From contig CAVVXL010000001.1 in assembly GCA_963752235.1 (NCBI GenBank), forward strand, positions 1,856,590 to 1,920,589: DNA of 64,000 nt, given 5' to 3'. This document shows, piece by piece, positions 6,062 through 50,638 of this stretch. The notes below the pieces were generated by a model that saw only the letters and a program-made list of their open reading frames with translations, ran no database searches and was not told the DNA's origin. The DNA is from an uncultured Acidobacteriota bacterium (GTDB taxonomy: Bacteria; Acidobacteriota; Thermoanaerobaculia; Multivoradales; UBA5704). The position numbers were made by a program, and so were the translations under genes. Position 1 is the first letter of the stretch. Every line of letters begins with the position of its first letter.

Positions 6062-6106
6062 CGCAAAGTACCTTTCCTGGAGAGTCTGAGACCTAGCGCT
6101 CCCTAC

Positions 6107-8337: not shown

Positions 8338-8375
8338 GCAAAAAAACAGGGAGGGCCGGGTGACCGGCCCTCCCT
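8338..8375 (-). terminator. rho-independent terminator of the giant repeat-protein gene
   Basis: On the minus strand: 12-bp perfect stem AGGGAGGGCCGG / CCGGCCCTCCCT with a 4-nt loop, then TTTTTTT. It lies 23 nt after the stop at 8398 and precedes the lasso B1 gene. Confidence 0.75.
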
Positions 8376-8397
8376 AAAGAGTCTCCTGCGAAGAGGC

Positions 8398-11300
8398 TTA
8401 GCTCCCGCAGTGATACCCGAAATCAACATCAGTCCGACTGGCCGTGAGGCTGAACGTGGCCTGGTTGGCGGTCGAAAGGCCATCGAGGTCGAACGTCTCG
8501 GTCCAATGAGCCGGCAGGGTGCTGGTGACGATTTTCACCGTGTAGGTGCCGGCCGCCAGGTTGCCGAAGCTATAGCTGCCGCTGCTGTTGGTCGTGGTGG
8601 TGGCGATGACCGTGCCGCTGCTGTTGAGCAGTTGGACGGTCACTCCGCTGATGCCCGCCTCGCCGGAGTCGAGGTGGCCGTTGCTGTTGGTGTCGTTCCA
8701 GACCTTGTCGCCGATCGTGAGGCTGCCGCGGTAGCCGAAGTCGACGTCGGTGCGGCTCTGGCCGGCCGTGAGGGCGAAGGTGGCCTTGCCGGCCGTGGAG
8801 ACGCCGTCGAGGTCGTACGTCGCGGTCACACCGGCGGGCAGGGTGCTGGTGACGATCTTCACCGAGTAGGTGCCGGCCGTCAGGCCCCCAAAGCTGTAGT
8901 TGCCGTCGGTCGCGGTGACAGCCGAGGCGATGGCGAGACCGGTGCTGTCGAGGAGCTGGACGGTGACGCCGTTGATGCCGGTCTCACCGGAGTCCTGGAC
9001 GCCGTTGCCGTTGGTGTCGGTCCACACCCGGTTACCCACGGAGCCGAGGGTGCCGCAGTCGTCCAGGTCGATGTTGATGTCGCCCTGGCCGGTGGTCTGG
9101 AAGCTGGAGCCGGTGGTCGGCTGATGCGTCACCGTCCACAGGTACCAGCCGGAGCCGCCGAAGTTGAGGTTCTTGCCGTTGGCGCCGAAGCCGACCTGGA
9201 ACGCCGGTCCGGTGTTGTGAATGGTGACCACCGCACCCGCGTAGCTGCCGGTGCCGGTCAGCGTGCCGGTGTAGCTCGTGAAGTAATACCAGCTGGCCGT
9301 GTTGATCGGGCCGCCGTTCTCGCTGTAGGCCGTGGACTTCAGCTCCTTCTTCGGGCTACCGGAGCCGATGGCGGTGGTCAAGCCGCTGAAGGTGACGTCC
9401 ACCGTGAAGCTCCTGGTGGGGTCGGAGACGCTCCGCAGCGTGCCCGTCAGGTGGGCGGTGTAGTCGGAGTTGACCACGAAGCTGCCCGGGTTCGGCGTGA
9501 ACACCAGGTCGGTGACGATGCCGGGGAACCAGAAGGCCTGGCCGCCGGAGGAGGGACCGTAGGTGGCGTCGAGGGCGGCGGCGAGGGCGCAGCCGTTGAC
9601 CTTGTAGCCAAAGTCCACGTCGGTGCGGGTCTGGCCGCCGGTGAGGGTGAAAGCGGCGACGTTGGCGGTCGCGATGCCGTCGAGGTCGTAGCTCGGGCTG
9701 AGCGCGCCGCCCAGCGGCAGGGTGCTCGTCACCACGCGGACGGAGTAGCTGCCGGCCACGAGGTTGGAGAAGTTGTAGAGGCCGCCACCCGAGGTGGTGG
9801 TGGTGGCAACGACGGTGCCGCCCGAGTTGAGGAGCTGGACGGTGACGCCGTCGAGGCCGGACTCGCCGGAGTCGAGGACGCCGTTGCCGTTCAAGTCGAA
9901 CCAGACCAGGTCACCGACCGAAGCGCTGGTGCGGTAACCGAAGTCGACGTCGGTGCGGCTGGCCCCGGCGGCGAGGGTGACGGTGGCCGCGTTGGCCGTC
10001 GCCAGACCGTCGAGGTCGTAGGTCTGCGCCGCCCCGCCGGGGATGGTGGAGGCGACCACCTTCACCGTGTAGGTGCCGGCCACCAGGTTGCTGAACGTGT
10101 AGTTGCCGTCGCCGCTCGTGGTGGCGGTCGCGATGACAGTGCCGCCGCTGTTGACCAGCTGGACGGTGACGCCGTTGATCCCGGCCTCGCCGGAATCCTG
10201 GACGCCGTTGCCGTTGGTGTCGAGCCAGACCCGGTCACCGATCGAGCCGGCGTTCTTGTAGCCGAAGTCGACGTCGGTGCGGTCCTGGGCCGCGGCGAGG
10301 GTGAAGGTGGCCTTGTTGGCCGTGGCGACGCCGTCGAGGTCGAAGCTCGGCGTCACACCGGCGGGCAGGGCGGTGGTGATGACCTTCACCGAGTAGGTGC
10401 CGGCGGGAATCCCGTCGAAGGTGTAGCTGCCGTCCCCCGCGGTGATCGCGGAGGCGAAGGCGACGCCGTTGTTGTCGAGGATCTGCACGGTGACGCCGTT
10501 GATGCCGGCCTCGCCGGAATCCTGGACGCCGTTGCCGTTGGTGTCGAGCCAGACCCGGTCACCGACCGAGCCGAGGGTCGAGCAGTCGTCCAGGTCGATG
10601 TTGATGTCGCCCTGGCCGGTCGTCGTGAAGCTCGAGCCGGAGGTGGGCTGGTGCGTCACCGTCCAGAGGAACCAGCCGGAGCCGCCGAAGCGGACGTTCT
10701 TGCCGTTGGCGCCGATGCCGGTCTGGAAGGCCGGGCCGGTGCGGGCGATGGTGATCACCGCCCCCGCATAGCTGCCGGTGCCGGTCAGAGTGCCGGTGTA
10801 TGTCGTGTAGTACGACCAGGTGGCGGTGTTGACCGGGCCGCCGTTTTCGGAGTAGGCCGAGGCCTGCAGCTCCTTCTTCGGGCTGCCGCTCCCCACGGTG
10901 TTGGTCAGGCCGCTGAAGGCGACGTCCACCGTGAAGCTCTTGGTGGGGTCGGAGACGCTGCGCAGCGTGCCGGTCAGGTGGGCGGTGCCGTCACCGTTGG
11001 CGACGAAGCCTCCCGGGTTGGGCGTGAAGACGAGGTCAGTGACGATGCCCGGGAACCAGAAGGCCTGGCCACCCGAGGAGGGGCCGTAGACGGTATCGAG
11101 CGGGGCGCCGACGGCGCAGCCGTTCGTCTTGTAGCCGAAGTCGACGTCGGTCCGGTTCTGGCCAGCGGCCAGAGTGAAGCTGGCGAAGTTGGCCGTGGCG
11201 ATCCCGTCGAGATCGAAGCTCGGAACCACACCGGCCGGCAGGCTGCTGGTCACCACGCGGACGGAGTAGGAGCCGGCCGCGAGGTTGCCGAAGGTGTAGT

Positions 11301-14300
11301 TGCCGTCGCCGCTGGTGGTGGTCGTCGCGACCACGTTGTTGGCGGAGTCGAGGAGCTGGACGGTGACGCCGTTGATGCCGGTCTCACCCGCGTCCTGGAC
11401 GCCGTTGCCGTTGCTGTCCATCCAGACACGGTCGCCGACCGAGCCGGTGAGGCGGTAACCGAAGTCGACGTCGGTGCGGTTCTGACCCGCGGTCAGGGTG
11501 ACCGCCGCCTGGTTCGCCGTCGCGGTCCCGTCGAGGTCGTAGGTCGCCGCGACCCCAGCGGGGAGCGAGGCGGGGACGATCTTGACGGTGTAGCTGCCGG
11601 CCGCCAGGTTGCTGAACGTGTAGTTGCCGTCGCCGGCCGTCGTGGTGGTCGCGATGACGGTACCGCCGCTGTTCACCAACTGGACGGTGACGCCGTTGAT
11701 CCCGGCCTCGCCGGAATCCTGGACGCCGTTGCCATTGGTGTCCGTCCAGACGCGGTCGCCGATCGAGCCGGTGTTCTTGTAGCCGAAGTCGACGTCGGTG
11801 CGGCTGGCACCGGCGGCGAGGGTGAGGGTGGCCTGGTTGGCCGTCGCCACGCCGTCGAGGTCGAAGGTCTCCGCCGTGCCGGCCGGCAGACCCGAGACCT
11901 TGACCGTGTAGGTACCGGCCGCCAGGTTGCTGAACGTGTAGTTGCCGTCACCGGCCGTCGTGGTCGTCGCCACCACGTTGTTCGAGGCGTCGAGCAGCTG
12001 GACGGTGACGCCGTTGATGCCCGTCTCGCCGGAATCCTGGACGCCGTTGCCGTTGCTGTCGAGCCAGACCCGGTCGCCGACCGAGCCGGTGTTCTTGTAA
12101 CCGAAGTCGACGTCGGTCCGGTTCTGGCCCGCCGTCAGGGTGAAGGTCGCCTGGTTGGCCGTCGCCACGCCGTCGAGGTCGAAGGTCTCCGCCGTACCGG
12201 CCGGCAGACCCGAGACCTTGACCGTGTAGGTACCGGCCGCCAGGTTGCTGAACGTGTAGTTGCCGTCACCGGCCGTCGTGATCGTCGCCACCACGTTGTT
12301 CGAGGCGTCGACGAGCTGAACGGTGACGCCGTTGATGCCGGTCTCGCCGGAATCCTGCACGCCGTTGCCGTTGGCGTCGAGCCAGACCCGGTCGCCGACC
12401 GAGCCGGTGTTCTTGTAGCCGAAGTCGACGTCGGTCCGGTTCTGGCCCGCCGTCAGGGTGAAGGTCGCCTGGTTGGCCGTCGCCACGCCGTCGAGGTCGA
12501 AGGTCTCCGCCGTACCGGCCGGCAGACCCGAGACCTTGACCGTGTAGCTGCCGGCGGCCAGGTTGCTGAACGTGTAGTTGCCATCGCCGGCCGTCGTCGT
12601 GGTCGCCACCACGTTGTTCGAGCTGTCGAGCAGCTGGACGGTGACGCCGTTGATGCCGGTTTCGCCGGAATCCTGAGCGCCGTTGCCGTTGGCATCGAGC
12701 CAGACGCGGTCGCCGATCGAACCCGTGTTCTTGTAGCCGAAGTCGACGTCGGTCCGGTTCTGGCCCGCCGTCAAGGTGACCGCCGCCTGGTTCGCCGTCG
12801 CAATCCCGTCGAGGTCGAAGGTAGGCGCCGTACCGGCCGGCAGACCCGAGACCTTGACCGTGTAGCTACCGGCCGCCAGGTTGCTGAACGTGTAGTTGCC
12901 GTCGCCGGCCGTCGTGGTAGTCGCGATCACGGTGCCGCCGCTGTTCACCAGCTGGACGGTGACCCCGTTGATCCCGTTCTCGCCGGAATCCTGAGCGCCG
13001 TTGGCGTTGGTGTCGAGCCAGACACGGTCACCGATCGAGCCCGTGTTCTTGTAACCGAAGTCGACGTCGGTCCGGTTCTGACCCGCCGTCAGGGTGAAGG
13101 TCGCCTGGTTGGCCGTCGCGATCCCGTCGAGGTCGAAGGTCGGCGCCGTACCGGCCGGCAGACCCGAGACCTTGACGGTGTAGCTGCCAGCCGCCAGGTT
13201 GCTGAACGTGTAGTTGCCGTCGCCCGCCGTCGTCGTGGTCGCCACCACGTTGTTCGAGCTGTCGAGCAGTTGGACGGTGACGCCGTTGATGCCGGTCTCG
13301 CCGGAATCCTGAGCGCCGTTGCCGTTGGCATCGAGCCAGACGCGGTCGCCGATCGAACCCGTGTTCTTGTAGCCGAAGTCGACGTCGGTCCGGTTCTGGC
13401 CCGCCGTCAAGGTGACCGCCGCCTGGTTCCCCGTCGCGATCCCGTCGAGGTCGTAGGTCGCCGTCACGCCAGCCGGGAGCGAGGCGGCAACAATCTTGAC
13501 GGTGTAGCTGCCGGCCGCCAGGTTGCCGAACGTGTAGTTGCCGTCGCCAGCGGTCGTCGTCGTCGCGAGGACGGTGCCGCCGCTGTTCACCAGCTGGACG
13601 GTGACGCCGTTGATGCCGGTCTCGCCGACGTCCTGAGCGCCGTTGCCGTTGCTGTCGAGCCAGACCCGGTCGCCGACCGAGCCGGTGTTCTTGTAGCCAA
13701 AGTCGACGTCGGTCCGGTTGGCACCGGCGGCGAGGGTGAAGGTCGCTTGGTTGGCCGTCGCGATCCCGTCGAGGTCGTAGGTCGCCGCGGTCCCAGCGGG
13801 GAGCGAGGCGGCAACGATCTTGACGGTGTAGGTGCCGGCCGCCAGGTTATTGAATGTGTAGTTGCCGTCGCCACCAGTCGTGGTGGTCGCCACCACGTTG
13901 TTCGCGGCGTCGAGCAGCTGGACGGTGACGCCGTTGATGCCGGTCTCACCGGAATCCTGGATGCCGTTGCCGTTGGCGTCGAGCCAGACGCGGTCGCCGA
14001 CCGAGCCCGTGTTCTTGTAGCCGAAGTCGACGTCGGTGCGGCTGGCGCCGGCGGCGAGGGTGAAGGTCGCCTGGTTGGCCGTTGCGATCCCGTCGAGGTC
14101 GTAGGTCGCCGCGACTCCAGCCGGGAGCGAGGTCGCCACGATCTTGACCGTGTAGCTGCCGGCCGCCAGGTTGTTGAACGTGTAGTTGCCGTCACCCGCG
14201 GTCGTCGTGGTCGCTACCAAGTTGTTCGAGGCGTCGAGCAGTTGGACGGTGACGCCGTTGATGCCGGTCTCGCCGGCGTCCTGCACGCCGTTGCCGTTGC

Positions 14301-17300
14301 TGTCGAGCCAGACCCGGTCGCCGACCGAGCCGGTGTTCTTGTAGCCGAAGTCGACGTCGGTCCGGTTCTGACCGGCGGTGAGGGTGAAGGTCGCCTGGTT
14401 GGCCGTCGCGATCCCGTCGAGGTCGAAGGTCGCCGCGGTCCCAGCGGGGAGCGAAGCGGGGACGATCTTGACGGTGTAGCTGCCGGCCGCCAGGTTGCCG
14501 AACGTGTAGTTGCCGTCGCCGGCGGTCGTCGTCGTCGCGACCACGGTGCCGCCGCTGTTCACCAGTTGGACGGTGACGCCGTTGATGCCGGTCTCGCCGG
14601 CGTCCTGAGCGCCGTTGCCGTTGGCGTCGAGCCAGACCCGGTCGCCGACCGAGCCGGTGTTCTTGTAGCCGAAGTCGACGTCGGTCCGGTTGGCGCCGGC
14701 GGCGAGCGTGAAGGTCGCCTGGTTGGCCGTCGCGATCCCGTCGAGGTCGTAGGTCGCCGCGGTCCCAGCGGGGAGCGAGGCGGCAACGATCTTGACGGTG
14801 TAGGTGCCGGCCGCCAGGTTGTTGAATGTGTAGTTGCCGTCGCCACCGGTCGTGGTGGTCGCCACCACGTTGTTCGCGGCATCGAGCAGCTGGACGGTGA
14901 CGCCGTTGATGCCGGTCTCGCCGGAATCCTGGATGCCGTTGCCGTTGGCGTCGAGCCAGACGCGGTCGCCGACCGAGCCCGTGTTCTTGTAGCCGAAGTC
15001 GACGTCGGTGCGGCTGGCGCCGGCGGCGAGCGTGAAGGTCGCCTGGTTGGCCGTTGCGATCCCGTCGAGGTCGTAGGTCGCCGCAGTCCCAGCCGGGAGC
15101 GAGGCGGCAACGATCTTGACCGTGTAGCTGCCGGCGGCCAGGTTGCTGAACGTGTAGTTGCCGTCGCCCGCGGTCGTCGTGGTCGCCACCAGGTTGTTCG
15201 AGGCGTCGAGCAGCTGGACGGTGACGCCGTTGATGCCGGTCTCGCCGGAATCCTGGACACCGTTGCCATTCGCGTCGAGCCAGACCCGGTCGCCGACCGA
15301 GCCCGTGTTCTTGTAGCCGAAGTCGACGTCGGTGCGGCTGGCGCCGGCGGCGAGCGTGAAGCTGGCCGTGTTGGCGGTGGCGACGCCGTCGAGGTCGTAG
15401 GTCGGCGTCACCCCCGGCGGGAGCGAGGCGGCCACGATCTTGACGGTGTAGCTGCCGGCCACCAAGTTGTCGAACGTGTAGTTGCCGTCGCCGCTCGTGG
15501 TGGTGGTGGCCACCACGGTGTTCGCGGCATCGAGCAGTTGGACGGTGACGCCGTTGATGCCGGCCTCACCGGCGTCCTGGGTGCCGTTGCCGTTGCTGTC
15601 GAGCCAGACGCGGTCGCCGACCGAGCCCTTGTTCTTGTAGCCGAAGTCGACGTCGGTGCGGGTGGCGCCGGCGGCGAGGGTGAAGCTGGCGGCGTTCGCC
15701 GTGGCGATGCCGTCGAGGTCGTAGGTCGGGGTCATGCCGGCCGGCAGGGTGCTGGGCACCACGCGGACGGTGTAGTTGCCGGCGGTGGCCGGGAAGGCGT
15801 AGTTGCCGTCGCCGCTGGTGATCGTCGCCGCGACGACGTTGCCGCCGGCGTCGACGAGCTGGACGGTGACGCCGTTGATGCCGGCCTCGCCGGAATCCTG
15901 AACGCCGTTGCCGTTGGCATCGAGCCAGATGCGGTCACCGACCGAGCCGACCGTCGAGCAGCCGTCGAGGTCGACGTTGATGTCGCCCTGGCCGGTCGAC
16001 TGCAGGTTGGCGCCGGCGGTGGGCTGGCTGGTGACGTTCCACACGTACCAGCCGGAGCCGCCGAAGTTGCCGTTCTTGCCGTTGGCGCCGGCACCCACCT
16101 GGAAGGCCGGGCCGGTCTGGTCGATCCGGATCACCGCCCCCGCGTAGTTGCCGATCCCCGTCAGGGTGCCGGTGTACGAGGTGTAGTAGTACCAGGTCGC
16201 CGGATCGATCGAGCCGCCGTTGGCCACGTAGGCCGAGGCGAAGAGCTCTTCCTTCGGGCTGCCGGCCGGCGGCGTCGACTGATAGCCGCTGAACTGCACG
16301 TCGACCGTGAAGGCGTTGTTCGGATCCGACTTGCTGCGCACGGTCCCGGTCAGGTGAGCGGTGCCGTCGGTGTTCGAGGTGAAGCCACCGGCCGTCGGGA
16401 CGAAGACGAAGTCCGTGCCGATGCCGGGCAGGTAGAACGAGTGGCCGTTCGGACCGTTGTTGAGAGCCGGGTCCGAGATGGACGGCATGGCGCAGGAGCT
16501 GCCACCCGGAGGGGGCGTCCAGTAGCCGAAGTCGACGTCGGTGCGGTTGGCGCCGGCGGCAAGGGCGAAGGAAGCCGTGTTGGCCGTGCCGAGGCCGTCG
16601 AGGTCGTAGGTCTCGGCCAAGCCGGCCGGAAGCGTGGCGGTGACCACCCGGACGCTGTAGGAGCCGCCCGCGAGGTTGCCGAAGAGGTAGTTGCCGTCGC
16701 CGGCCGTGACTGTCGAGGCGATCACGTTCGAGCCGCTGTCGAGCAGCTGAACGGTCACCCCGTTGATGCCGGCCTCGCTGGAGTCCTGGACGCCGTTGCC
16801 GTTGCTGTCGAGCCAGACGCGGTCGCCGACCGAGCCGTTGGCGCGGTAGCCGAAGTCGACGTCGGTGCGGTTGGTGCCGGCGGCGAGAGTGAACGTGGCC
16901 TGGTTGGCCGAGGCGACGCCGTCGAGGTCGTAGGTCTCGGCGACTCCGGCCGGTAGCGAAGAGACGCGGACGGTGTAGGTGCCGGCCGCCAGGTTGTTGA
17001 ACGTGTAGTTGCCGTCACCCGCCGTGGTGGTGGTCGCCACGACGTTGTTCGAGCCATCGAGGAGCTGGACGGTGACGCCGTTGATGCCGGCCTCACCCGC
17101 GTCCTGGACGCCGTTGCCGTTGCCGTCGAACCAGACGCGGTCGCCGACCGAGCCGGTGTTCTTGTAGCCGAAGTCGACGTCGGTGCGGGTGGCACCGGCG
17201 GCGAGGGTGAAGGTCGCCTGGTTGGCGCTCGCGACGCCGTCGAGGTCGTAGGTCTCGGCGACCCCGGCCGGCAGCGAAGAGACGCGGACGGTGTAGGTGC

Positions 17301-20300
17301 CGGCCGCCAGGTTGTTGAACGTGTAGTTGCCGTCGCCCGCGGTCACCGTGGTGCCCACCACGTTGTTGGCGCCGTCGAGCAGTTGGACGGTGACGCCGTT
17401 GAGGCCGGCCTCGCCCGCATCCTGCGCGCCGTTGCCGTTGCCGTCGAGCCAGACGCGGTCGCCGACCGAGCCGGTGTTCCGGTAGCCGAAGTCGACGTCG
17501 GTGCGGGTGGCACCGGCGGCGAGGGTGAAGGTCGCCTGGTTGGCGCTCGCGATGCCGTCGAGGTCGTAGGTCTCCGCGACCCCGGCCGGCAGCGACGAGA
17601 CGCGCACCGTGTAGGTGCCCCCCGCCAGGTTGTTGAACGTGTAGTTGCCGTCGCCCGCGGTCACCGTAGTGCCGACCACGTTGTTGGCGCCGTCGAGCAG
17701 CTGGACGGTGACGCCGTTGATGCCGGCCTCGCCCGCATCCTGCGCGCCGTTGCCGTTGCCGTCGAGCCAGACGCGGTCGCCGACCGAGCCGGTATTCCGG
17801 TAGCCGAAGTCGACGTCGGTGCGGTTGGCGCCGGCGGCGAGGGTGAAGGTCGCCTGGTTGGCCGTCGCGATGCCGTCGAGGTCGTAGGTCTCCGCGACCC
17901 CGGCCGGCAGCGACGAGACGCGCACCGTGTAGGTGCCCCCCGCCAGGTTGTTGAACGTGTAGTTGCCGTCGCCGGACGTGGCCGTGGTAGCCACGACGTT
18001 GGCGCTGGCGTCGAGGAGCTGAACGGTGACGCCGTTGAGGCCGGCCTCACCCGCGTCCTGGACACCGTTGCCGTTGCTGTCGAGCCAGACGCGATCACCG
18101 ACCGAGCCGGTGGCCCGGTACCCGAAGTCGACATCGGTCCGATGGTCACCGGCGGCGATCGTCAGGGTGGCGGTATTGGCCGTGGCGATCCCGTCGAGGT
18201 CGTAGGTCGGCGCGACTCCCGGGGGGAGCGAGCCGGCGACGACGCGGACCGTGTAGGTGCCGCTGTTGAGGTTGTCGAAGGTGTAGTTGCCGTCACCGCT
18301 GGTGGTCGCGGTGGCGACGACGTTGCTCGCGCCGTCGAGGAGCTGGACGGTGACGCCGTTGATGCCGGCCTCACCCGCGTCCTGGACGCCGTTGCCGTTG
18401 CTGTCGGTCCACACGCGGTCGCCGATCGAGCCGGTGCCGCGATAGCCGAAGTCGACGTCGGTGCGGTGGGCACCGGTCGCCAGGCTGAACGAGGCGCTGT
18501 TGGCCGAGGCGACACCGTCGAGGTCGTAGGTCTCCGCAACTCCCGCGGGGAGCGTGGCGGCGTCGACCTGGACGGTGTAGTTGCCGGCGATCAGAGTGTC
18601 GAAGGTGTAGTTGCCGTCACCGCTGGTCGTGGTGGTCGCGACCAGGACGCCGTACGCGTCGAGCAGCTTGATGGTCACGCCGTTGATGCCGGTCTCGCCG
18701 GCGTCCTGGACGCCGTTGCCGTTGGTGTCGAGCCAGACCCGGTCACCGACCGAGGCCGTGGCCGGCGGGCAGTCGCCGAGGTCGATGTTGATGTCGCCCT
18801 GACCGGTCGGCAGCAGGTTGGCACCGACGGTGGGCTGGCTGGTGACGTTCCAGATGAACCAGCCCGAGGCGCCAAAATGAGTGTTCTTGCCGTTGGCGCC
18901 GGCTCCCACCTCGAAGGCCGGACCCGTCTGCGTCATGTCGATGATGGCGCCGGCGTAGTTGCCGATCCCCGTCAGGGTGCCGGTGAAACCGGTGTAGTAG
19001 AACCAGGTCGAGGGATCGACCGGACCGCCGTTCTCGACGTACGCGGGGGGGAGGAGCTCCTTCTTCGGGCTCCCCGCCGGCGGGCTCGCCGAGTAGCCGG
19101 TGAAGTGCACCACCACGGTGAACGCGTTGTTCGGGTTCGAGGCGCTGCGCAGAAGGCCCGTGAGCTGAGCGGTGCCGTCGGCGTTCGCCACGAAGCTGCC
19201 GGGGATCGGCGTGAAGATGAAGTCGGTGCCGATGCCGGGCAGATAGAAGGAATGGCCGGACGGGAACTGGTTGTAGGCCGGGTCGCCGGCCGCGCCGGTC
19301 GCGCAATCCGTGAAGACCGGCGGCGGCGTGCGGTAGCCGAAGTCGACGTCGGTGCGGTTGGCGCCGGGGGCGAGACTGACGGTGGCCTGGTTGGCCGTGG
19401 CGACGCCGTCGACGTCATAGGTCTCCGCGACTCCGGCCGGAAGCGTCGAGGTGACGATGCGGACCGTGTAGGTGCCGCCGGCGAGGCCGGTGAAGGTGTA
19501 GTTGCCGTCGCCCGCCGTGGTGGCCGTGGCGATGACGTTCGAGCCGGCGTCGAGGAGCTGCACGGTGACGCCGTTGATCCCGGCCTCGCCGGCATCCTGG
19601 ACGCCGTCGCCGTTGCCGTCGAGCCAGACCCGGTCACCGATCGAGCCGTTGAGGCGGTAGCCGAAGTCGACGTCGGTGCGGTTGGCGCCGGCGGCGAGAG
19701 TGAAGGTCGCCTGGTTGGCCGTCGCGACGCCGTCGAGGTCGTAGGTCTCCGCCACTCCAGGCGGAAGCGTGGCGGCGACGACACGGACGGTATAGGTGCC
19801 ACCGGCCAGGTTGTTGAACGTGTAGTTGCCGTCGCCCGCCGTGGTCGTCGTACCCACCACGTTGTTCGAAGCGTCGAGCAGCTGGACGGTGACGCCGTTG
19901 ATCCCGGCCTCACCCGCGTCCTGGACGCCGTTGCCGTTCGAATCGAGCCAGACGCGGTCGCCGACCGAGCCGTTGTAGCGATAGCCGAAGTCGACGTCGG
20001 TGCGGTTGGCGCCGGCGGCGAGAGTGAAGGTCGCCTGGTTGGCCGTCGCGACGCCGTCGAGGTCGTAGGTCTCGGTGACCCCCGCCGGCAGCGACGAGAC
20101 ACGCACCGTGTAGGTGCCCCCCGCCAGGTTGTTGAACGTGTAGTTGCCATCGCCCGACGTGGTCGTCGTGCCCACCACGTTGTTCGAAGCGTCGAGCAAC
20201 TGGACGGTGACGCCGTTGATCCCGGCCTCACCGGCGTCCTGGACGCCGTTGCCGTTGCTGTCGAGCCAGACCCGGTCGCCGACCGAGCCGGTGTAGCGGT

Positions 20301-23300
20301 AGCCGAAGTCGACGTCGGTGCGGTTCGCGCCGGCGGCGAGGGTGAAGGTCGCCTGGTTGGCCGTCGCGACGCCGTCGAGGTCGTAGGTCTCGGTGACCCC
20401 CGCCGGCAGCGACGAGACGCGCACCGTGTAGGTGCCGCCCGCCAGGTTGTTGAACGTGTAGTTGCCGTCGCCCGACGTGGTCGTCGTGCCCACCACGTTG
20501 TTCGAAGCGTCGAGCAACTGGACGGTGACGCCGTTGATCCCGGCCTCACCGGCGTCCTGGACGCCGTTGCCGTTGCTGTCGAGCCAGACCCGGTCGCCGA
20601 CCGAGCCGGTGTAGCGGTAGCCGAAGTCGACGTCGGTGCGATTGGCGCCGGCGGCGAGGGTGAAGGTCGCCTGGTTGGCCGTCGCGACGCCGTCGAGGTC
20701 GTAGGTCTCGGTGACCCCCGCCGGCAACGACGAGACGCGCACCGTGTAGGTGCCGCCCGCCAGGTTGTTGAACGTGTAGTTGCCGTCGCCCGACGTGGTC
20801 GTCGTGCCCACCACGTTGTTCGAAGCATCGAGCAACTGGACGGTGACGCCGTTGATCCCGGCTTCGCCGGCATTCTGGACGCCGTTGCCGTTGCTGTCGA
20901 GCCAGACCCGGTCGCCGACCGAGCCGTTGTAGCGATAGCCGAAGTCGACGTCGGTGCGGTTGGCGCCGGCGGCGAGGGTAAAGGTCGCCTGGTTGGCCGT
21001 CGCGATGCCGTCGAGGTCGTAGGTCTCCGCGACCCCGGCCGGCAGCGACGAGACGCGCACCGTGTAGGTGCCGCCCGCCAGGTTGTTGAACGTGTAGTTG
21101 CCGTCACCCGCCGTAGTGGTGGTGCCGACGATGTTGTTCGCGCCGTCGAGGAGCTGGACGGTGACGCCGTTGATCCCGGCCTCGCCCGCGTCCTGGACGC
21201 CGTTGCCGTTGCTGTCGAGCCAGACGCGGTCGCCGACCGAGCCGGTGTAGCGGTAGCCGAAGTCGACGTCGGTGCGGTTCGCGCCGGCGGCGAGGGTGAA
21301 GGTCGCCTGGTTGGCCGAGGCGACGCCGTCGAGGTCGTAGGTCTCGGTGACCCCCGCCGGCAGCGACGAGACGCGCACCGTGTAGGTGCCCCCCGCCAGG
21401 TTGTTGAACGTGTAGTTGCCATCGCCCGCCGTGGTGGTGGTGCCGACGACGTTGTTCGCGCCGTCGAGGAGCTGGACGGTCACGCCGTTGATCCCGGCCT
21501 CGCCCGCATCCTGGACGCCGTTGCCGTTGGCGTCGAGCCAGACGCGGTCGCCGACCGAGCCCGTGTAGCGATAGCCGAAGTCGACGTCGGTGCGGTTCGC
21601 GCCAGCGGCGAGGGTGAAGGTCGCCTGGTTGGCCGTCGCGATGCCGTCGAGGTCGTAGGTCTCCGCGACCCCCGCCGGCAGCGACGAGACGCGCACCGTG
21701 TAGGTGCCCCCCGCCAGGTTGTTGAACGTGTAGTTGCCGTCACCCGCCGTAGTGGTGGTCCCCACGACGTTGTTCGCGCCGTCGAGCAGTTGCACCGTCA
21801 CGCCGTTGATCCCGGCCTCGCCGGCATCCTGGATGCCGTCGCCGTTGGCGTCGAGCCAGACGCGGTCGCCGACCGAGCCCGTGTAGCGATAGCCGAAGTC
21901 GACGTCGGTGCGGTTGGCGCCGGCGGCGAGGGTGAAGGTCGCCTGGTTGGCCGAGGCGACGCCGTCGAGGTCGTAGGTCTCGGTGACCCCGGCAGACAGC
22001 GACGAGACACGCACCGTGTAGGTGCCCGGCGCCAGGTTGTTGAACGTGTAGTTGCCGTCGCCGGACGTGGTGGTGGTGCCGACGACGTTGTTCGCGCCGT
22101 CGAGCAGTTGCACCGTCACGCCGTTGATCCCGGCCTCGCCGGCATCCTGGACGCCGTCGCCGTTGCTGTCGAGCCAGACGCGGTCGCCGACCGAGCCGGT
22201 GTAGCGATAGCCGAAGTCGACGTCGGTGCGGTCCATACCAGCGGCGAGGGTGAAGGTCGCCTGGTTGGCCGAGGCGACGCCGTCGAGGTCGTAGGTCTCG
22301 GTGATCCCCGCCGGCAGCGACGAGACGCGCACCGTGTAGGTGCCGCCCGCCAGGTTGCTGAACGTGTAGTTGCCGTCGCCGGCCGTGGTGGTGGTGCCGA
22401 CAACGTTGTTCGCGCCGTCAAGCAGCTGCACCGTCACGCCGTTGATCCCGGCCTCGCCGGCGTCCTGGACGCCGTTGCCGTTGCTGTCGAGCCAGACCCG
22501 GTCGCCGACCGAGGCGGAGCCGCGATAGCCGAAGTCGACGTCGGTCCGCGTCTGGCCGCTGGTCAGGGTGACCGTGGCGGCGTTGGGAGTGCCCACGCCG
22601 TCGAGGTCGTAGGTCGGCGTCGTCACCCCGGCCGGCAGCGTCGCGGGGACGACCCGGACCGTGTAGGTATCGGCCGCGAGGCTGTTGAAGGTGTAGTTGC
22701 CGTCGCCGCTCGTGGTGGCGGTACCCACCAGGTTGTTAGACGAGTCGAACAGCTGCACCGTGACGCCGTTGATGCCGGCCTCGCCCGCGTCCTGGATGCC
22801 GTTGCCGTTGGCATCGTTCCAGACGCGGTCGCCGAGCGCAGCCGTCGCCGTCACCGGAGCGTGATAACCGAAGTCGATGTCGGTCTCAACGGTGCCGGCG
22901 GGAGCGGGGACGGTGGCCGCGTCGGGGGTGTCGATGCCGTCGAGGTCGTAGGTCTCGACCGAGCCCGCGGGGAGCGTCGTGGTGTCGACCTGGATGGTGT
23001 ACGTCCCCTCGGCCAGGTGGTCGAAGGAGTAGTGGCCATCCGCGCCGGTCACCGTGCTCTCCAGCGGGTTCCCGGAGTCGTCGTACAGGTTGACCGTGAC
23101 GCCGACGAAGCCGGGCTCATCGGGATCCTGGACGCCGTCGCTGTTGACGTCGTTCCAGACCCGGTCGCCGAGCGAGACGTTGCCCTGGTAGCCGAAGTCG
23201 TAGTCGGTGCGGATCTCGCCGCCGACGATGGTGAGCGCCGCCTGGTTGGGCGTCGCGACCCCGTCCTCGTCGAAGGTCGGCGTCAGGCCGCCCGGCAGCG

Positions 23301-25026
23301 TCGTGTCATCCACCCGCACCGTGTAGTTGCCGGCGGGGATGTTGGTGATCATGTAGTTGCCGTCACCGTTGGTCGTGTCCTGCGCGATGACGTTGCCGCC
23401 GCTGTCGAGCAACTGCACGACGACGTTGTTGATGCCCGGCTCGCCCGGGTCCTGCACGCCGTTGCCGTTGTAGTCGTTCCAGATGCGGTTGCCGACCGCG
23501 CCGGGCTTCTTGAAGCCGAAATCGCAGGTCAGCACGTTGTTGTTGGTGATCGTCGCCTGGCACTGCTCGGGAGTCGTCGGCGTGTAGCCCGAAAGGGTAC
23601 CGCCGCTCTCACCGTTGAAGTTGCTGGGCGCGATCTTGACCGTGTACGGGAACGCCTCGACCTCGAAGGAGTAGTGGCCGTCGGCGTCCGTATGAGTGGT
23701 CGCGACGAGCGCGTCGTTCTCGTCGAAGAGCTGCATCTCGACGCCGCCGATGCCGGGCTCTCCCGGGTCCTGGACGCCGTTGTTGTTCTCGTCGACGAAG
23801 ACCGTGTCGCCGAGCAGGTAGGGGTGCAAAGGCGCACAGGGGATCCCGGCCTGGCTCACGCAGAGCGCGCGGCCCGGCAGCAGCAGGGCGTTGAGGTTCT
23901 GCATGTCGACCCCCTGAATCCGCAGCAGGAAGATGCCGGGAGGGATCAGGTCGTCGGTGTGATAGTCCATCTGACTGCGATCGAAAGGATCGGTCGAAAT
24001 CTTGAACTGCTCCCACTCCTGGTTGCCCGAGGGGTTGTCGTTGGCGAAGGTGCGGCCGTCCGGGAAGATCAGGTCGTAGCGGATGGCCGGCGGCTTGGAA
24101 AGGTAGATCCCGGTGCCCGCCGGGCTGCGGTCGTCCGGAGGATTGCCGGTCGTGCCGCCGGAGCCCATGGCAACCCCTTCGGAAACCGTATCGCTGGTCG
24201 CCCAGACCGGCTTGAACGGCGCGTTGGGCGTATCCGGATCGTCGGTATCCTGGTTCGTGCCGTCGTAGCTGCCGTGATCGAAGTCGCCATCCCAAATGGT
24301 GATCGAACGCTGGCTCACCGCCTGTTCGAAATAGAAGTTGAAGTAGCCGTCGTACGTCGTCGGCGTGGCCGACGGAAAGCTCGGATAGACGATCTTGAGA
24401 TCGGAGTTTCCCGTCACGTTCGCGATATATGAAAACGGCTCGGGGGAAGGGAACAGGGAGGACCCGCCCACGTTGGCTCCACTCGTACGGAGCTTGAAGG
24501 CATTGAGGGTCACCGCCGGAGCTGTCAGCTTAATGCGCAGGAGATAGAAATAGTTGCCGCTCGGGGCCTTGGCCGACGGATCAGTATTGACGGTGTAGTC
24601 GATCCATGCGTTGTCCGGCATCGTAGTGGAGAGCTGGACCGACTGGCCGGAGAGCGGAGCGACCGTCGCCGCCGCGTGGTCGCGGTTCGGATCGGCATAC
24701 AGGGTGTAGCTGAAGACGGCGGGAGAACCCGTATCCCAATGGGAGAGAAGGGAGCTGTCGACTCCCTTGGCGTCGCCGTCGAAGATACCGACCGTGAAGG
24801 TCGCCGTCCCCTTGGGCACCGCGATCTCGAGATCTAGCGTCGGCTGGCTCAGGGTGACCAGGCCGGCGCCGTTGGCGATCGCGAGGAACCGCGCGTCCGT
24901 CGGATCACAACTCGGCAGGCAGTTGTAGGTGACCTGGGCCTGGACGGATACCGCCGCCAGGAACAGGAAGGCGATCAGCGCACCAAACTTCCATCGTAAA
25001 GACAGCATAAAAGAGCCTCCTCTCAT
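8398..25026 (-). CDS. giant secreted repeat protein (5,542 aa) made of tandem SdrD-B-like / Cna-B-type Ca-binding domains; putative adhesin/surface protein
   Basis: Single uninterrupted ORF. Signal peptide MLSLRWKFGALIAFLFLAAVSVQA; the probable true start is Met7 at 25008, preceded by GGAGG. About 38 repeats of ~115 aa (VGDRVWLDSNGNGVQDAGEAGINGVTVQLLD...GDGNYTF.NL..GTYTV...DFGY). Four ~175-aa insert domains. No recognisable C-terminal sorting signal. Confidence 0.85.
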   Translation of the reverse strand: MRGGSFMLSLRWKFGALIAFLFLAAVSVQAQVTYNCLPSCDPTDARFLAIANGAGLVTLSQPTLDLEIAVPKGTATFTVGIFDGDAKGVDSSLLSHWDTGSPAVFSYTLYADPNRDHAAATVAPLSGQSVQLSTTMPDNAWIDYTVNTDPSAKAPSGNYFYLLRIKLTAPAVTLNAFKLRTSGANVGGSSLFPSPEPFSYIANVTGNSDLKIVYPSFPSATPTTYDGYFNFYFEQAVSQRSITIWDGDFDHGSYDGTNQDTDDPDTPNAPFKPVWATSDTVSEGVAMGSGGTTGNPPDDRSPAGTGIYLSKPPAIRYDLIFPDGRTFANDNPSGNQEWEQFKISTDPFDRSQMDYHTDDLIPPGIFLLRIQGVDMQNLNALLLPGRALCVSQAGIPCAPLHPYLLGDTVFVDENNNGVQDPGEPGIGGVEMQLFDENDALVATTHTDADGHYSFEVEAFPYTVKIAPSNFNGESGGTLSGYTPTTPEQCQATITNNNVLTCDFGFKKPGAVGNRIWNDYNGNGVQDPGEPGINNVVVQLLDSGGNVIAQDTTNGDGNYMITNIPAGNYTVRVDDTTLPGGLTPTFDEDGVATPNQAALTIVGGEIRTDYDFGYQGNVSLGDRVWNDVNSDGVQDPDEPGFVGVTVNLYDDSGNPLESTVTGADGHYSFDHLAEGTYTIQVDTTTLPAGSVETYDLDGIDTPDAATVPAPAGTVETDIDFGYHAPVTATAALGDRVWNDANGNGIQDAGEAGINGVTVQLFDSSNNLVGTATTSGDGNYTFNSLAADTYTVRVVPATLPAGVTTPTYDLDGVGTPNAATVTLTSGQTRTDVDFGYRGSASVGDRVWLDSNGNGVQDAGEAGINGVTVQLLDGANNVVGTTTTAGDGNYTFSNLAGGTYTVRVSSLPAGITETYDLDGVASANQATFTLAAGMDRTDVDFGYRYTGSVGDRVWLDSNGDGVQDAGEAGINGVTVQLLDGANNVVGTTTTSGDGNYTFNNLAPGTYTVRVSSLSAGVTETYDLDGVASANQATFTLAAGANRTDVDFGYRYTGSVGDRVWLDANGDGIQDAGEAGINGVTVQLLDGANNVVGTTTTAGDGNYTFNNLAGGTYTVRVSSLPAGVAETYDLDGIATANQATFTLAAGANRTDVDFGYRYTGSVGDRVWLDANGNGVQDAGEAGINGVTVQLLDGANNVVGTTTTAGDGNYTFNNLAGGTYTVRVSSLPAGVTETYDLDGVASANQATFTLAAGANRTDVDFGYRYTGSVGDRVWLDSNGNGVQDAGEAGINGVTVQLLDGANNIVGTTTTAGDGNYTFNNLAGGTYTVRVSSLPAGVAETYDLDGIATANQATFTLAAGANRTDVDFGYRYNGSVGDRVWLDSNGNGVQNAGEAGINGVTVQLLDASNNVVGTTTTSGDGNYTFNNLAGGTYTVRVSSLPAGVTETYDLDGVATANQATFTLAAGANRTDVDFGYRYTGSVGDRVWLDSNGNGVQDAGEAGINGVTVQLLDASNNVVGTTTTSGDGNYTFNNLAGGTYTVRVSSLPAGVTETYDLDGVATANQATFTLAAGANRTDVDFGYRYTGSVGDRVWLDSNGNGVQDAGEAGINGVTVQLLDASNNVVGTTTTSGDGNYTFNNLAGGTYTVRVSSLPAGVTETYDLDGVATANQATFTLAAGANRTDVDFGYRYNGSVGDRVWLDSNGNGVQDAGEAGINGVTVQLLDASNNVVGTTTTAGDGNYTFNNLAGGTYTVRVVAATLPPGVAETYDLDGVATANQATFTLAAGANRTDVDFGYRLNGSIGDRVWLDGNGDGVQDAGEAGINGVTVQLLDAGSNVIATATTAGDGNYTFTGLAGGTYTVRIVTSTLPAGVAETYDVDGVATANQATVSLAPGANRTDVDFGYRTPPPVFTDCATGAAGDPAYNQFPSGHSFYLPGIGTDFIFTPIPGSFVANADGTAQLTGLLRSASNPNNAFTVVVHFTGYSASPPAGSPKKELLPPAYVENGGPVDPSTWFYYTGFTGTLTGIGNYAGAIIDMTQTGPAFEVGAGANGKNTHFGASGWFIWNVTSQPTVGANLLPTGQGDINIDLGDCPPATASVGDRVWLDTNGNGVQDAGETGINGVTIKLLDAYGVLVATTTTSGDGNYTFDTLIAGNYTVQVDAATLPAGVAETYDLDGVASANSASFSLATGAHRTDVDFGYRGTGSIGDRVWTDSNGNGVQDAGEAGINGVTVQLLDGASNVVATATTSGDGNYTFDNLNSGTYTVRVVAGSLPPGVAPTYDLDGIATANTATLTIAAGDHRTDVDFGYRATGSVGDRVWLDSNGNGVQDAGEAGLNGVTVQLLDASANVVATTATSGDGNYTFNNLAGGTYTVRVSSLPAGVAETYDLDGIATANQATFTLAAGANRTDVDFGYRNTGSVGDRVWLDGNGNGAQDAGEAGINGVTVQLLDGANNVVGTTVTAGDGNYTFNNLAGGTYTVRVSSLPAGVAETYDLDGIASANQATFTLAAGATRTDVDFGYRNTGSVGDRVWLDGNGNGAQDAGEAGLNGVTVQLLDGANNVVGTTVTAGDGNYTFNNLAAGTYTVRVSSLPAGVAETYDLDGVASANQATFTLAAGATRTDVDFGYKNTGSVGDRVWFDGNGNGVQDAGEAGINGVTVQLLDGSNNVVATTTTAGDGNYTFNNLAAGTYTVRVSSLPAGVAETYDLDGVASANQATFTLAAGTNRTDVDFGYRANGSVGDRVWLDSNGNGVQDSSEAGINGVTVQLLDSGSNVIASTVTAGDGNYLFGNLAGGSYSVRVVTATLPAGLAETYDLDGLGTANTASFALAAGANRTDVDFGYWTPPPGGSSCAMPSISDPALNNGPNGHSFYLPGIGTDFVFVPTAGGFTSNTDGTAHLTGTVRSKSDPNNAFTVDVQFSGYQSTPPAGSPKEELFASAYVANGGSIDPATWYYYTSYTGTLTGIGNYAGAVIRIDQTGPAFQVGAGANGKNGNFGGSGWYVWNVTSQPTAGANLQSTGQGDINVDLDGCSTVGSVGDRIWLDANGNGVQDSGEAGINGVTVQLVDAGGNVVAATITSGDGNYAFPATAGNYTVRVVPSTLPAGMTPTYDLDGIATANAASFTLAAGATRTDVDFGYKNKGSVGDRVWLDSNGNGTQDAGEAGINGVTVQLLDAANTVVATTTTSGDGNYTFDNLVAGSYTVKIVAASLPPGVTPTYDLDGVATANTASFTLAAGASRTDVDFGYKNTGSVGDRVWLDANGNGVQDSGETGINGVTVQLLDASNNLVATTTTAGDGNYTFSNLAAGSYTVKIVAASLPAGTAATYDLDGIATANQATFTLAAGASRTDVDFGYKNTGSVGDRVWLDANGNGIQDSGETGINGVTVQLLDAANNVVATTTTGGDGNYTFNNLAAGTYTVKIVAASLPAGTAATYDLDGIATANQATFTLAAGANRTDVDFGYKNTGSVGDRVWLDANGNGAQDAGETGINGVTVQLVNSGGTVVATTTTAGDGNYTFGNLAAGSYTVKIVPASLPAGTAATFDLDGIATANQATFTLTAGQNRTDVDFGYKNTGSVGDRVWLDSNGNGVQDAGETGINGVTVQLLDASNNLVATTTTAGDGNYTFNNLAAGSYTVKIVATSLPAGVAATYDLDGIATANQATFTLAAGASRTDVDFGYKNTGSVGDRVWLDANGNGIQDSGETGINGVTVQLLDAANNVVATTTTGGDGNYTFNNLAAGTYTVKIVAASLPAGTAATYDLDGIATANQATFTLAAGANRTDVDFGYKNTGSVGDRVWLDSNGNGAQDVGETGINGVTVQLVNSGGTVLATTTTAGDGNYTFGNLAAGSYTVKIVAASLPAGVTATYDLDGIATGNQAAVTLTAGQNRTDVDFGYKNTGSIGDRVWLDANGNGAQDSGETGINGVTVQLLDSSNNVVATTTTAGDGNYTFSNLAAGSYTVKVSGLPAGTAPTFDLDGIATANQATFTLTAGQNRTDVDFGYKNTGSIGDRVWLDTNANGAQDSGENGINGVTVQLVNSGGTVIATTTTAGDGNYTFSNLAAGSYTVKVSGLPAGTAPTFDLDGIATANQAAVTLTAGQNRTDVDFGYKNTGSIGDRVWLDANGNGAQDSGETGINGVTVQLLDSSNNVVATTTTAGDGNYTFSNLAAGSYTVKVSGLPAGTAETFDLDGVATANQATFTLTAGQNRTDVDFGYKNTGSVGDRVWLDANGNGVQDSGETGINGVTVQLVDASNNVVATITTAGDGNYTFSNLAAGTYTVKVSGLPAGTAETFDLDGVATANQATFTLTAGQNRTDVDFGYKNTGSVGDRVWLDSNGNGVQDSGETGINGVTVQLLDASNNVVATTTTAGDGNYTFSNLAAGTYTVKVSGLPAGTAETFDLDGVATANQATLTLAAGASRTDVDFGYKNTGSIGDRVWTDTNGNGVQDSGEAGINGVTVQLVNSGGTVIATTTTAGDGNYTFSNLAAGSYTVKIVPASLPAGVAATYDLDGTATANQAAVTLTAGQNRTDVDFGYRLTGSVGDRVWMDSNGNGVQDAGETGINGVTVQLLDSANNVVATTTTSGDGNYTFGNLAAGSYSVRVVTSSLPAGVVPSFDLDGIATANFASFTLAAGQNRTDVDFGYKTNGCAVGAPLDTVYGPSSGGQAFWFPGIVTDLVFTPNPGGFVANGDGTAHLTGTLRSVSDPTKSFTVDVAFSGLTNTVGSGSPKKELQASAYSENGGPVNTATWSYYTTYTGTLTGTGSYAGAVITIARTGPAFQTGIGANGKNVRFGGSGWFLWTVTHQPTSGSSFTTTGQGDINIDLDDCSTLGSVGDRVWLDTNGNGVQDSGEAGINGVTVQILDNNGVAFASAITAGDGSYTFDGIPAGTYSVKVITTALPAGVTPSFDLDGVATANKATFTLAAAQDRTDVDFGYKNAGSIGDRVWLDTNGNGVQDSGEAGINGVTVQLVNSGGTVIATATTSGDGNYTFSNLVAGTYTVKVVASTIPGGAAQTYDLDGLATANAATVTLAAGASRTDVDFGYRTSASVGDLVWFDLNGNGVLDSGESGLDGVTVQLLNSGGTVVATTTTSGGGLYNFSNLVAGSYSVRVVTSTLPLGGALSPSYDLDGIATANVAAFTLTGGQTRTDVDFGYKVNGCALAAALDATYGPSSGGQAFWFPGIVTDLVFTPNPGSFVVNSDYTAHLTGTLRSVSDPTRSFTVDVTFSGLTTAIGSGSPKKELKSTAYSENGGPINTASWYYFTSYTGTLTGTGSYAGAVVTIHNTGPAFQVGFGANGKNLNFGGSGWYLWTVTHQPTTGSSFQTTGQGDINIDLDDCGTLGSVGNRVWTDTNGNGVQDSGETGINGVTVQLLDSTGLAIASAVTATDGNYSFGGLTAGTYSVKIVTSTLPAGVTATYDLDGVSTAGKATFALTAGQSRTDVDFGYRGSLTIGDKVWNDTNSNGHLDSGEAGISGVTVQLLNSSGTVIATTTTNSSGSYSFGNLAAGTYTVKIVTSTLPAHWTETFDLDGLSTANQATFSLTASRTDVDFGYHCGS
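8401..23750. repeat. about 345-bp near-identical tandem coding repeats (with four ~525-bp interspersed insert units) inside the giant gene
   Basis: The same ~345-nt unit recurs dozens of times at high identity. It generates two giant spurious antisense ORFs (8410..16956, 17383..24432). Insert units lie at about 9050-9600, 10570-11120, 15950-16510 and 18770-19330. Confidence 0.8.
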
Positions 25027-25119
25027 CTCTCCAGACCCTAACCCGCGGGGCAGGTAGGGGATCTCAAAGCATGAATCGTAAAAGCAAAGGTAGTTTTACA
25101 GCCTGGCGTCAGGAACTCG

Positions 25120-25362: not shown

Positions 25363-25546
25363 GGGGCATCCACCTCTTGGGCTGGTGAAGGTTTTAGGGA
25401 TGACTACGGTACGGACCAGTCTGAGCAGCGAGCGTCAGGGAAGCGTCAGGAGCCCGTCCATCGATGGGATACAATGGGATCCAGGCATTGCATGTCAGTT
25501 CGGTATTCGGAGTCCGGTCGAGGACCTTGCGCGAGGGAGTTTCATC

Positions 25547-49972: not shown

Positions 49973-50638
<666 letters not shown>

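Follow-up and report, generated by a model that had tools for sequence, protein, structure and literature searches.

Very large bacterial adhesins of the LapA, SiiE and MpIBP type reach hundreds of kDa, are acidic, and consist of tandem β-sandwich domains that are stiffened by calcium and extend ligand-binding modules. They are secreted by a type I secretion system (T1SS) without a Sec signal, combine BIg-type repeats with C-terminal RTX (repeats-in-toxin) repeats, and are encoded next to genes for ATP-binding cassette (ABC), membrane fusion protein (MFP) and TolC components. Here we describe a protein of ~5,500 residues (hereafter the giant protein) encoded in a 64,000-nucleotide stretch of DNA, the window, from an uncultured soil bacterium of the Thermoanaerobaculia (Acidobacteriota) (GenBank assembly GCA_963752235.1, contig CAVVXL010000001.1, positions 1,856,590 to 1,920,589). 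It appears to share the working principle of these adhesins and is likewise strongly acidic (539 Asp and Glu against 204 Lys and Arg), but it differs from them in having a Sec signal, SdrD_B repeats and no RTX motif.

Its repeats are of the same family as those of SdrD from Staphylococcus aureus, in which an N-terminal head is followed by B repeats that bind calcium via EF-type motifs and serve as a spacer from which the ligand-binding domain projects (PMC5902956). The two proteins have in common the PF17210 family, 110-amino-acid (aa) units, EF-hand-like calcium loops, alignment to the B1-B2 structure, and the order of a head followed by a B-repeat spacer. In contrast to SdrD with its five B units, the giant protein has 41, together with inserted domains that we call X, and its host is a diderm acidobacterium; its head is not an N2-N3 A domain of the DLL (dock, lock and latch) type, and it has neither a Ser-Asp R region nor an LPXTG motif. 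It also does not belong to the SdrC/SdrD/SdrE family of MSCRAMM adhesins, whose model (NF012181) matches the B-repeat region only, with 109 bits where the cut-off is 2,500.

The head, here called N-dom, is also found in proteins from metagenome-assembled genomes (MAGs) that combine it with one or two SdrD_B domains or with an IPTL-CTERM tail. In related loci these share up to 82% identity in N-dom and the same neighbourhood of a regulator and lasso peptide genes, and the B domains of the former correspond to the first two repeats (R1-R2) of the giant protein. Unlike them, the giant protein has 41 B and four X domains and lacks the C-terminal GYWKNH...LCAPHR domain as well as any sorting signal. 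The X domains in turn belong to the same fold family as certain PEP-CTERM/VPLPA-CTERM proteins, but the latter are stand-alone exosortase substrates, whereas X is internal, present in four copies and without a sorting tail. Finally, the genes downstream resemble the paeninodin and Bradymonas bsf kinase-type lasso clusters: the window supplies B1, B2, C, an HprK-like K, and a precursor with a YxxPxL motif and Thr(-2), but it has no adjacent ABC exporter and its B2 gene is displaced. The repeat domain and the general design are already known, and public annotation names close relatives "SdrD B-like domain-containing protein" or "hypothetical"; what is new is the head and the insert domains, the absence of the relatives' anchors, the extreme expansion, and the conserved coupling to a lasso cluster. 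We consider it reasonably probable that the giant protein is a Sec-exported, calcium-stiffened stalk with a fast-evolving head and four side modules, expanded from a surface protein associated with the lasso cluster.

The giant gene and its repeat array

The gene is one open frame of 5,542 codons (16.6 kb) at 8398..25026 on the minus strand, as seen in the list of open reading frames (ORFs) and in the translation, which agrees with the original prediction of a single uninterrupted ORF for a 5,542-aa protein. GC content at third codon positions is 0.93 in this frame, as in other real genes of this 70% GC window, and the long ORFs opposite the gene are shadows of it. Overall GC content is 0.63-0.65 at 4001-8000, where the lasso genes lie, and at 24001-26000, which comprises the N-dom part and intergenic DNA, against ~0.70 elsewhere. 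We favour the second ATG (Met7, position 25008) over the first as the start codon, because a GGAGG box lies 7 nt upstream, a suitable ribosome-binding-site spacing, and because the public gene call also starts there. The product from Met7 has 5,536 aa, and exactly this protein is on record from a single NCBI/ENA contig of 2,221,287 bp.

The architecture was mapped with regular-expression anchors, Pfam, and three self-built hidden Markov models (HMMs), all of which were concordant. From the N terminus, and with all features on the minus strand, the protein comprises a signal peptide (aa 1-30, 24937..25026), N-dom (aa 31-405, 23812..24936), repeats R1-R14 (19333..23811), X copy 1 (aa 1899-2093, 18748..19332), R15-R21 (16522..18747), X copy 2 (aa 2836-3029, 15940..16521), R22-R36 (11131..15939), X copy 3 (aa 4633-4821, 10564..11130), R37-R39 (9604..10563), X copy 4 (aa 5142-5330, 9037..9603), R40-R41 (8413..9036), and a short tail, HCGS, with the stop codon (8398..8412). 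The domain order is thus N-dom, 14 B, X, 7 B, X, 15 B, X, 3 B, X, 2 B, tail. The 15 cysteines comprise seven obvious local pairs and a single unpaired residue in the tail, C5540, three residues from the C terminus. This cysteine (8401-8412) is not kept in a related giant protein from the same class (locus L006), which ends in ...NFGYRH. Thr makes up 13% of the protein, so that glycosylation is conceivable.

Both the repeat table and our own HMM give 41 B units, which recur every 106 or 108 aa. The earlier figures of ~38 repeats of ~115 aa arose because the repeat region had been divided without noticing the four X domains. The assignment to SdrD_B itself is well founded: PF17210, the search proposed at the time, matches aa 406-2100, which include R1-R14, with E = 0 (1,057 bits, 14 stretches) and covers the whole model, and it matches the last 943 aa with E = 2.8e-116 in 5 stretches over profile positions 2-112 of 112. 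Cna_B (PF05738) reaches a summed E of 6.5e-30 with no single stretch passing, beneath the far stronger SdrD_B match. In addition, a query of two repeats aligns to solved SdrD B1-B2 structures (10ps_A, E = 2.4e-29; 4jdz). The calcium-binding-like loops that had been noticed at the outset are present throughout, as the motif DxNxNGxxDxxExG occurs in 41/41 repeats, [YF]DxD[GS] in 40/41, and DGxY in 39/41. The B repeats are thus predicted to carry EF-hand-like calcium-binding loops such as those of SdrD B1-B5.

The repeats are considerably more divergent than first supposed. The 15 kb are not, as had been stated, 90% or more identical at the DNA level: the 41 repeats have a mean pairwise identity of 78.5% in DNA and 73.6% in protein, pairs at 90% or above in DNA make up only 6.2%, the maximum is 98%, and Tandem Repeats Finder reports arrays at 80-90% matches. 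Nor do they fall into two subfamilies. Clustering yields a 13-unit block (R5-13 and R17-20) with a mean identity of 90%, the only block to average 90%, two or three smaller homogenised blocks (R23-25/27/28; R26/29/31/35; R30/32-34), and 15 divergent single units that adjoin N-dom, adjoin X domains, or are C-terminal. The homogenised blocks thus number three or four at the least, with the 15 divergent units at the edges. Within the R22-R36 array, three units have been duplicated together at a higher order (R24-26 and R27-29). Overall, the pattern is typical of a tandem array whose interior has been homogenised.

Since some units of this tandem array are up to 98% identical, one may argue that the array or its length is an artefact of assembly, whether collapsed, expanded or chimeric. 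Relatives from long-read MAGs are indeed frameshifted (L009, L011, L014, L015), and short-read contigs often end inside the gene (L002, L003, L012). However, the frame is open over 16.6 kb on a source contig of 2.2 Mb, and every unit differs from every other. Exact direct repeats extend to 173 bp at most, short of 200 bp, and only 2% of the gene lies in 141-mers that recur. Among unit pairs that are at least 90% identical, the ratio of nonsynonymous to synonymous changes (pN/pS) is 0.18, and in the two closest pairs, R11/R12 and R25/R28, the 6 and 8 substitutions are synonymous without exception. Copies made by an assembler would show no differences, and copies in decay would have amino-acid changes as well; hence the array looks real, translated, and under selection.

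Moreover, the same architecture has been assembled independently in many genomes. Other Thermoanaerobaculia loci (L003-L022), from both short- and long-read assemblies, encode an N-dom, a number of B units, an X domain and a further number of B units in proteins whose lengths range from 1,637 aa to 3,700 aa or more. With lengths measured from where N-dom begins, the L005 (3,665 aa) and L020 (3,644 aa) proteins are complete and come uninterrupted from short reads; the L006 protein has 1,637 aa and ends as abruptly as that of the window; and those of L008, L010, L013, L016 and L017 exceed 3,700 aa and extend past the fetched flank. The window protein is the longest complete member among the relatives examined. 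L015 (CAWAUI010000004.1, ~4.80-4.82 Mb, on a contig shared with L001) holds two N-dom giants in tandem directly upstream of lasso genes, the first with 12 B, X, 8 B, two X and 3 B, and the second with 4 B, X, 6 B, X and 4 B. Both are frameshifted in this long-read MAG, as is the adjoining Asn-synthase gene; in L001/L015 at least, the split neighbouring gene points to read errors. Taken with these relatives, an artefact is very improbable. The assembly hazard raised by the original prediction is real but moderate rather than severe, given that homologous arrays of more than 10 kb were assembled without interruption in short-read MAGs (L005, L020, L013, L016). Its companion claim, that the gene is prone to recombination and phase variation, holds in part: a change in copy number by unequal recombination is plausible, because the length of each unit is divisible by 3 nt and the count varies among relatives, but such recombination would stay in frame and on/off phase variation is therefore unsupported.

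The head and insert domains

The N-terminal domain that had been described as unique is indeed unmatched. N-dom comprises 375 aa, is Asp-rich with two Cys pairs, and is modelled by AlphaFold2 (AF2) as an all-β fold with high confidence (predicted local distance difference test (pLDDT) 91.7, predicted template-modelling score (pTM) 0.91). It has no Pfam or NCBIfam match, and the same is true for 59 relatives outside their SdrD_B and sorting parts. A sequence search against solved structures returned only matches to the SdrD_B region and noise, and Foldseek against the PDB found nothing at E <= 1e-3. Weak fold matches (template-modelling (TM) score ~0.2) to the ColG collagen-binding domain, subtilase PPC domains, carbohydrate-binding modules and LipL32 were not used to assign a function. 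The invariant positions of N-dom are chiefly Asp, Trp, Pro and Gly and form no obvious catalytic set.

In comparison with its closest relative, L003, N-dom is 83% identical, whereas R1-R4 are 92-95% identical, GroEL 98%, the GT4 glycosyltransferase 97%, and the regulator 90%. Judged by these identities, the head appears to be the fastest-evolving part, since both the repeats and the flanking genes are better conserved, and this hints at diversifying selection on it.

A profile seeded with the window N-dom and searched against 1.84 billion proteins retrieved 614 representative clusters (E <= 1e-3), with relatives sharing 36-82% identity over 92-100% of the domain. Typical members have ~600-650 aa and consist of N-dom, one or two B units, and often a C-terminal domain of ~120 aa (GYWKNH...DDYNNGxLCAPHR) that has no Pfam match. 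Others end in IPTL-CTERM (~420-430 aa), in LPSTG followed by a transmembrane segment (Anaerolineales), or in the C-terminal domain (CTD) of the type IX secretion system (T9SS) (Kapaibacteriota). N-dom proteins thus seem to be surface proteins with interchangeable anchors, and because it is the C termini of the relatives that carry the cell-surface sorting signals, N-dom would be displayed at the distal end.

The four X domains (189-195 aa) are 56-67% identical to each other, and in every copy two invariant Cys residues, one close to each end, bracket the domain. The AF2 model of copy 2 has a pLDDT of 95.6. X has no match in Pfam, NCBIfam or the sequences of solved structures, and Foldseek against the PDB gave only a streptavidin-like resemblance (E >= 0.1, TM 0.35-0.5), which was not used to assign a function. 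Its relatives are stand-alone proteins of ~240-260 aa with PEP-CTERM or VPLPA-CTERM tails, which share 35-61% identity over 80-96% of X. A PepA-like flocculation domain was considered and rejected, as the floc_PepA matches of the X homologues are below cut-off and concern the PEP-CTERM tail only. As modelled, N-dom and X define two confidently folding, unannotated domain families.

The neighbouring lasso cluster

The giant gene lies between lasso genes and a regulator, as the original prediction had it, and these neighbours prove to be conserved rather than incidental. Downstream on the same strand, after 106 nt, is B1, a PqqD-like RiPP recognition element (RiPP, a ribosomally synthesized peptide that is modified after translation) at 8005..8292 (PF05402, E = 3e-17; NCBIfam lasso PqqD models below cut-off). 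It is followed, also on the minus strand, by a lasso-cyclase-like Asn synthase (C) at 6107..8008 (Pfam Asn_synthase; NCBIfam lass_lactam_cya at 353 bits, below its cut-off of 525), a candidate precursor (A) of 61 aa at 5876..6061, and an HprK-like peptide kinase (K) at 4897..5934, which matches NCBIfam HprK_rel_A weakly, is 55% identical to the K of the Holophagales locus L077, and probably has its true start further inside the frame. The precursor has the leader motif YESPRL, Thr(-2), and the core GLLSDLTDADFNGGSTGV, in which a G1-D8 ring is predicted, and it is kept in L001 and L077. A YxxPxL leader and Thr(-2) are among the criteria for lasso precursors in PMC10368454. The leader peptidase B2 (34476..34898, minus strand; PF13471 E = 1e-22; NCBIfam lasso_biosyn_B2 at 75 bits against a cut-off of 33) is displaced by ~9.5 kb, beyond GroES/GroEL. 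Together, A, B1, C, K and the displaced B2 match a kinase-type lasso set whose product is predicted. B2 lies ~26 kb from the other lasso genes (4897-8292), apparently by a rearrangement relative to the compact cluster of L077.

On the other side, divergent from the giant gene and separated from it by 358 bp of intergenic DNA, is a regulator with BTAD and AAA_16 domains according to Pfam (25385..27847, plus strand), of the SARP (Streptomyces antibiotic regulatory protein) type. Between the two lies a 68-aa ORF (MSWLVRCWEEPREQPPDEPILRYMVRDLKTGEERYLSDPRELGELV...; 25120..25326, minus strand) without a family match, which tblastn finds at the same position in 18 related loci. Past the lasso genes, a small signal-peptide protein (4227..4841, minus strand) resembles outer-membrane β-barrels (PF13505, E = 0.004, below cut-off; C-terminal Phe). 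In 14 Thermoanaerobaculia loci it is found together with the cluster, and it might act in the envelope as a partner of the giant protein.

This arrangement recurs well beyond the window. The gene order in L077 is GroEL-GroES, BTAD-AAA regulator, N-dom protein (629 aa), PqqD, B2, a 166-aa gene, C, A, K and CNNM; an Anaerolineales genome has N-dom (with an LPXTG-like signal), B2, C and K together; and L061, a MAG labelled as Deltaproteobacteria, has four types of lasso gene beside N-dom genes. In a survey of 73 non-redundant, species-level N-dom loci, one or more lasso genes lay within 10 kb in 43 and two or more kinds in 30, and the regulator was present in 35. PqqD starts 20-470 bp past the N-dom stop on the same strand in Acidobacteriota, Chloroflexota, Kapaibacteriota/Bacteroidota-type MAGs and others. 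By comparison, among the matches listed, none of 80 metagenomic loci (817 kb) around other lasso-cyclase homologues has an N, X or B domain; because these loci hold only distant cyclase homologues (23-37% identity, again among the matches listed), they serve as a negative control and not as a reciprocal test. A kinase is present in 16 of the 80. On the strength of the neighbourhood counts, the N-dom-to-PqqD spacing and the controls, the giant gene, the regulator and the lasso genes form a conserved unit and are not chance neighbours. Furthermore, since the family is encoded directly upstream of a kinase-type lasso cluster and beside the BTAD-AAA regulator, the giant gene is probably co-regulated with the cluster or used together with it.

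It is tempting to go one step further and regard the N-dom/SdrD_B protein as a working partner of the adjacent lasso peptide, an extracellular scaffold or receptor that would capture, display or sense the peptide, possibly in phosphorylated form. This idea is compatible with a stalk and would suit the tight, same-strand adjacency of the N-dom gene and B1 in several phyla with a shared regulator, the specificity of the association with respect to the control loci, and the lack of an adjacent ABC exporter (D) gene in the window. In contrast, a terminator-like hairpin (8347..8376, minus strand; 13-bp stem with 10 G-C pairs and a T7 tail) stands between the giant gene and B1, ~22 nt past the giant-gene stop, and suggests either a transcript separate from that of the lasso genes or attenuation. 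In addition, B2 has been moved off by rearrangement while the giant gene is still there, N-dom paralogues also occur without lasso genes, and a literature search found no paper linking lasso peptides to SdrD-type proteins or to Thermoanaerobaculia; nor did a search of the lasso-cluster literature, including the accessible part of PMC10368454, find a large secreted SdrD_B protein. We therefore hold the idea of a working partner as a tentative one. In its broadest form, in which N-dom/SdrD_B proteins would be an unrecognised integral part of kinase-type lasso clusters across phyla, serving the lasso peptide as extracellular scaffold, display fibre, receptor or delivery stalk, and stretched in Thermoanaerobaculia to a stalk of about half a megadalton with X modules, it is equally speculative, a possibility but not the expected outcome.

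Two further observations concern the surroundings. The flanks (236-4149 and 27866-31552) carry genes for cell-surface glycopolymers: a WecA-like GT4, a WcaI-like glycosyltransferase, an AZOBR_p60025-family protein and a GDSL hydrolase. Further away, a LanC-like gene (39972-41252, plus strand) adjoins a gene for a 678-aa protein (37887-39923, minus strand) with a weak match to the Hvo_1808 family of surface proteins, and 37887-41252 may be a second peptide-modification locus.

Export and surface location

The signal peptide reported at the start is confirmed by the hydropathy profile. The sole hydrophobic segment of the giant protein is N-terminal (residues ~7-30, Kyte-Doolittle maximum 1.98 at residue 14), and, being followed by VQA and then Q, with cleavage predicted after VQA, it looks like a Sec signal peptide. 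It is kept in the relatives P0112 and L003. The other end is as abrupt as first described: the protein stops at ...DFGYHCGS, 4 residues past the last B domain, with no LPXTG, PEP-CTERM, T9SS CTD or barrel.

A known dedicated pathway, whether T9SS, a T1SS for RTX adhesins, a type V (T5SS) autotransporter, or sortase/exosortase, is extremely unlikely to account for export and anchoring. The case for it would be that Por_Secre_tail matches the last repeat at 25-29 bits, slightly more than the NCBIfam and Pfam cut-offs require, and that a MacB/HlyD-type efflux system is encoded ~25 kb away. However, the Por_Secre_tail match is partial (25.4 bits over profile positions 18-61 of 72), internal repeats match the same part (positions 18-60, 14-20 bits), and ~40 residues follow it; since the internal repeats share it, the match reflects a generic β-sandwich rather than a sorting domain, and T9SS was rejected. 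A T1SS RTX adhesin does not fit either, as the protein has an N-terminal signal and no GGxGxD motif, and the nearest HlyD/MacB genes, ~25 kb off, are of the efflux type. A Sec signal at the N terminus is atypical for T1SS substrates. Equally, the protein has no LPxTG, no C-terminal hydrophobic segment and no match to a barrel or PEP-CTERM family. The genes in question (44766-51909, minus strand) encode a sigma-54 two-component pair (a histidine kinase and a Sigma54_activat response regulator), followed by two MacB/FtsX-type permeases and an HlyD-family adaptor, an efflux-type system that is not an obvious T1SS for the giant protein.

With a Sec signal and no signal found for outer-membrane translocation or anchoring, the giant protein might instead stay in the periplasm or envelope as a structural protein, or be released free without attachment. 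We regard this as unlikely, although less so than a dedicated pathway, because N-dom and X homologues elsewhere carry LPXTG-like, T9SS CTD, IPTL-CTERM and PEP-CTERM signals, and because calcium-dependent B domains are known from surface stalks (PMC5902956). The favoured reading, an exported stalk, draws its support for a surface location from the same signals: N-dom relatives have IPTL-CTERM, an LPXTG-like signal or a T9SS CTD at the C terminus, and X relatives have PEP-CTERM or VPLPA-CTERM there. Under this reading, the giant protein would be exported unfolded via Sec and would fold and stiffen outside the cytoplasm, where calcium is available. N-dom would then form the head of a stalk built from 41 SdrD-type B domains, which keep the calcium-binding loops by which the B region of staphylococcal SdrD is stiffened, and into this stalk four globular X domains, each closed by a Cys pair, would be spliced, and N-dom and perhaps X would be presented as binding modules far from the cell or within an extracellular matrix. 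The array itself would have arisen as a lineage-specific expansion, by tandem duplication and homogenisation of units, from a family that usually has one or two B domains.

Several observations weigh against this reading. All sorting signals looked for are absent: the protein has no LPxTG or GGxGxD motif, its last 300 aa contain no hydrophobic segment, and Pfam and NCBIfam searches gave no PEP-CTERM match (PF07589/TIGR02595) in the C-terminal 943 or 212 aa and no β-barrel family at the protein ends. Most relatives carry the C-terminal GYWKNH...DDYNNGxLCAPHR domain, which the giant protein lacks, and no remnant of it was found in the window downstream of the stop codon. Moreover, N-dom and X have no characterised homologue and their fold matches in the PDB are weak (E >= 1e-3 and E >= 0.1, respectively), and a binding function is therefore an analogy and not a finding. 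To these may be added the strong hairpin between the giant gene and the lasso genes, and the N-dom paralogues that lack a lasso neighbour, for example an IPTL-CTERM triplet in L079.

The giant protein bears on several questions. For annotation practice, the repeats are divergent enough to assemble, and the locus ought not to be set aside as an artefact. Acidobacteriota abound in soil but little is understood of them; a putative surface fibre that takes a gene of 16.6 kb represents a considerable investment, and it may be a factor that determines attachment or aggregation. A giant member without any of the interchangeable anchors of its family exposes a gap in the knowledge of protein export in Acidobacteriota. 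The tie of the gene to a specific type of lasso cluster and to a SARP-type regulator offers RiPP researchers a testable idea about the partners of lasso peptides. If the protein is indeed an extracellular partner of the lasso peptide, lasso peptides would be tied to a cell-surface structure and would not be only free, diffusible molecules.

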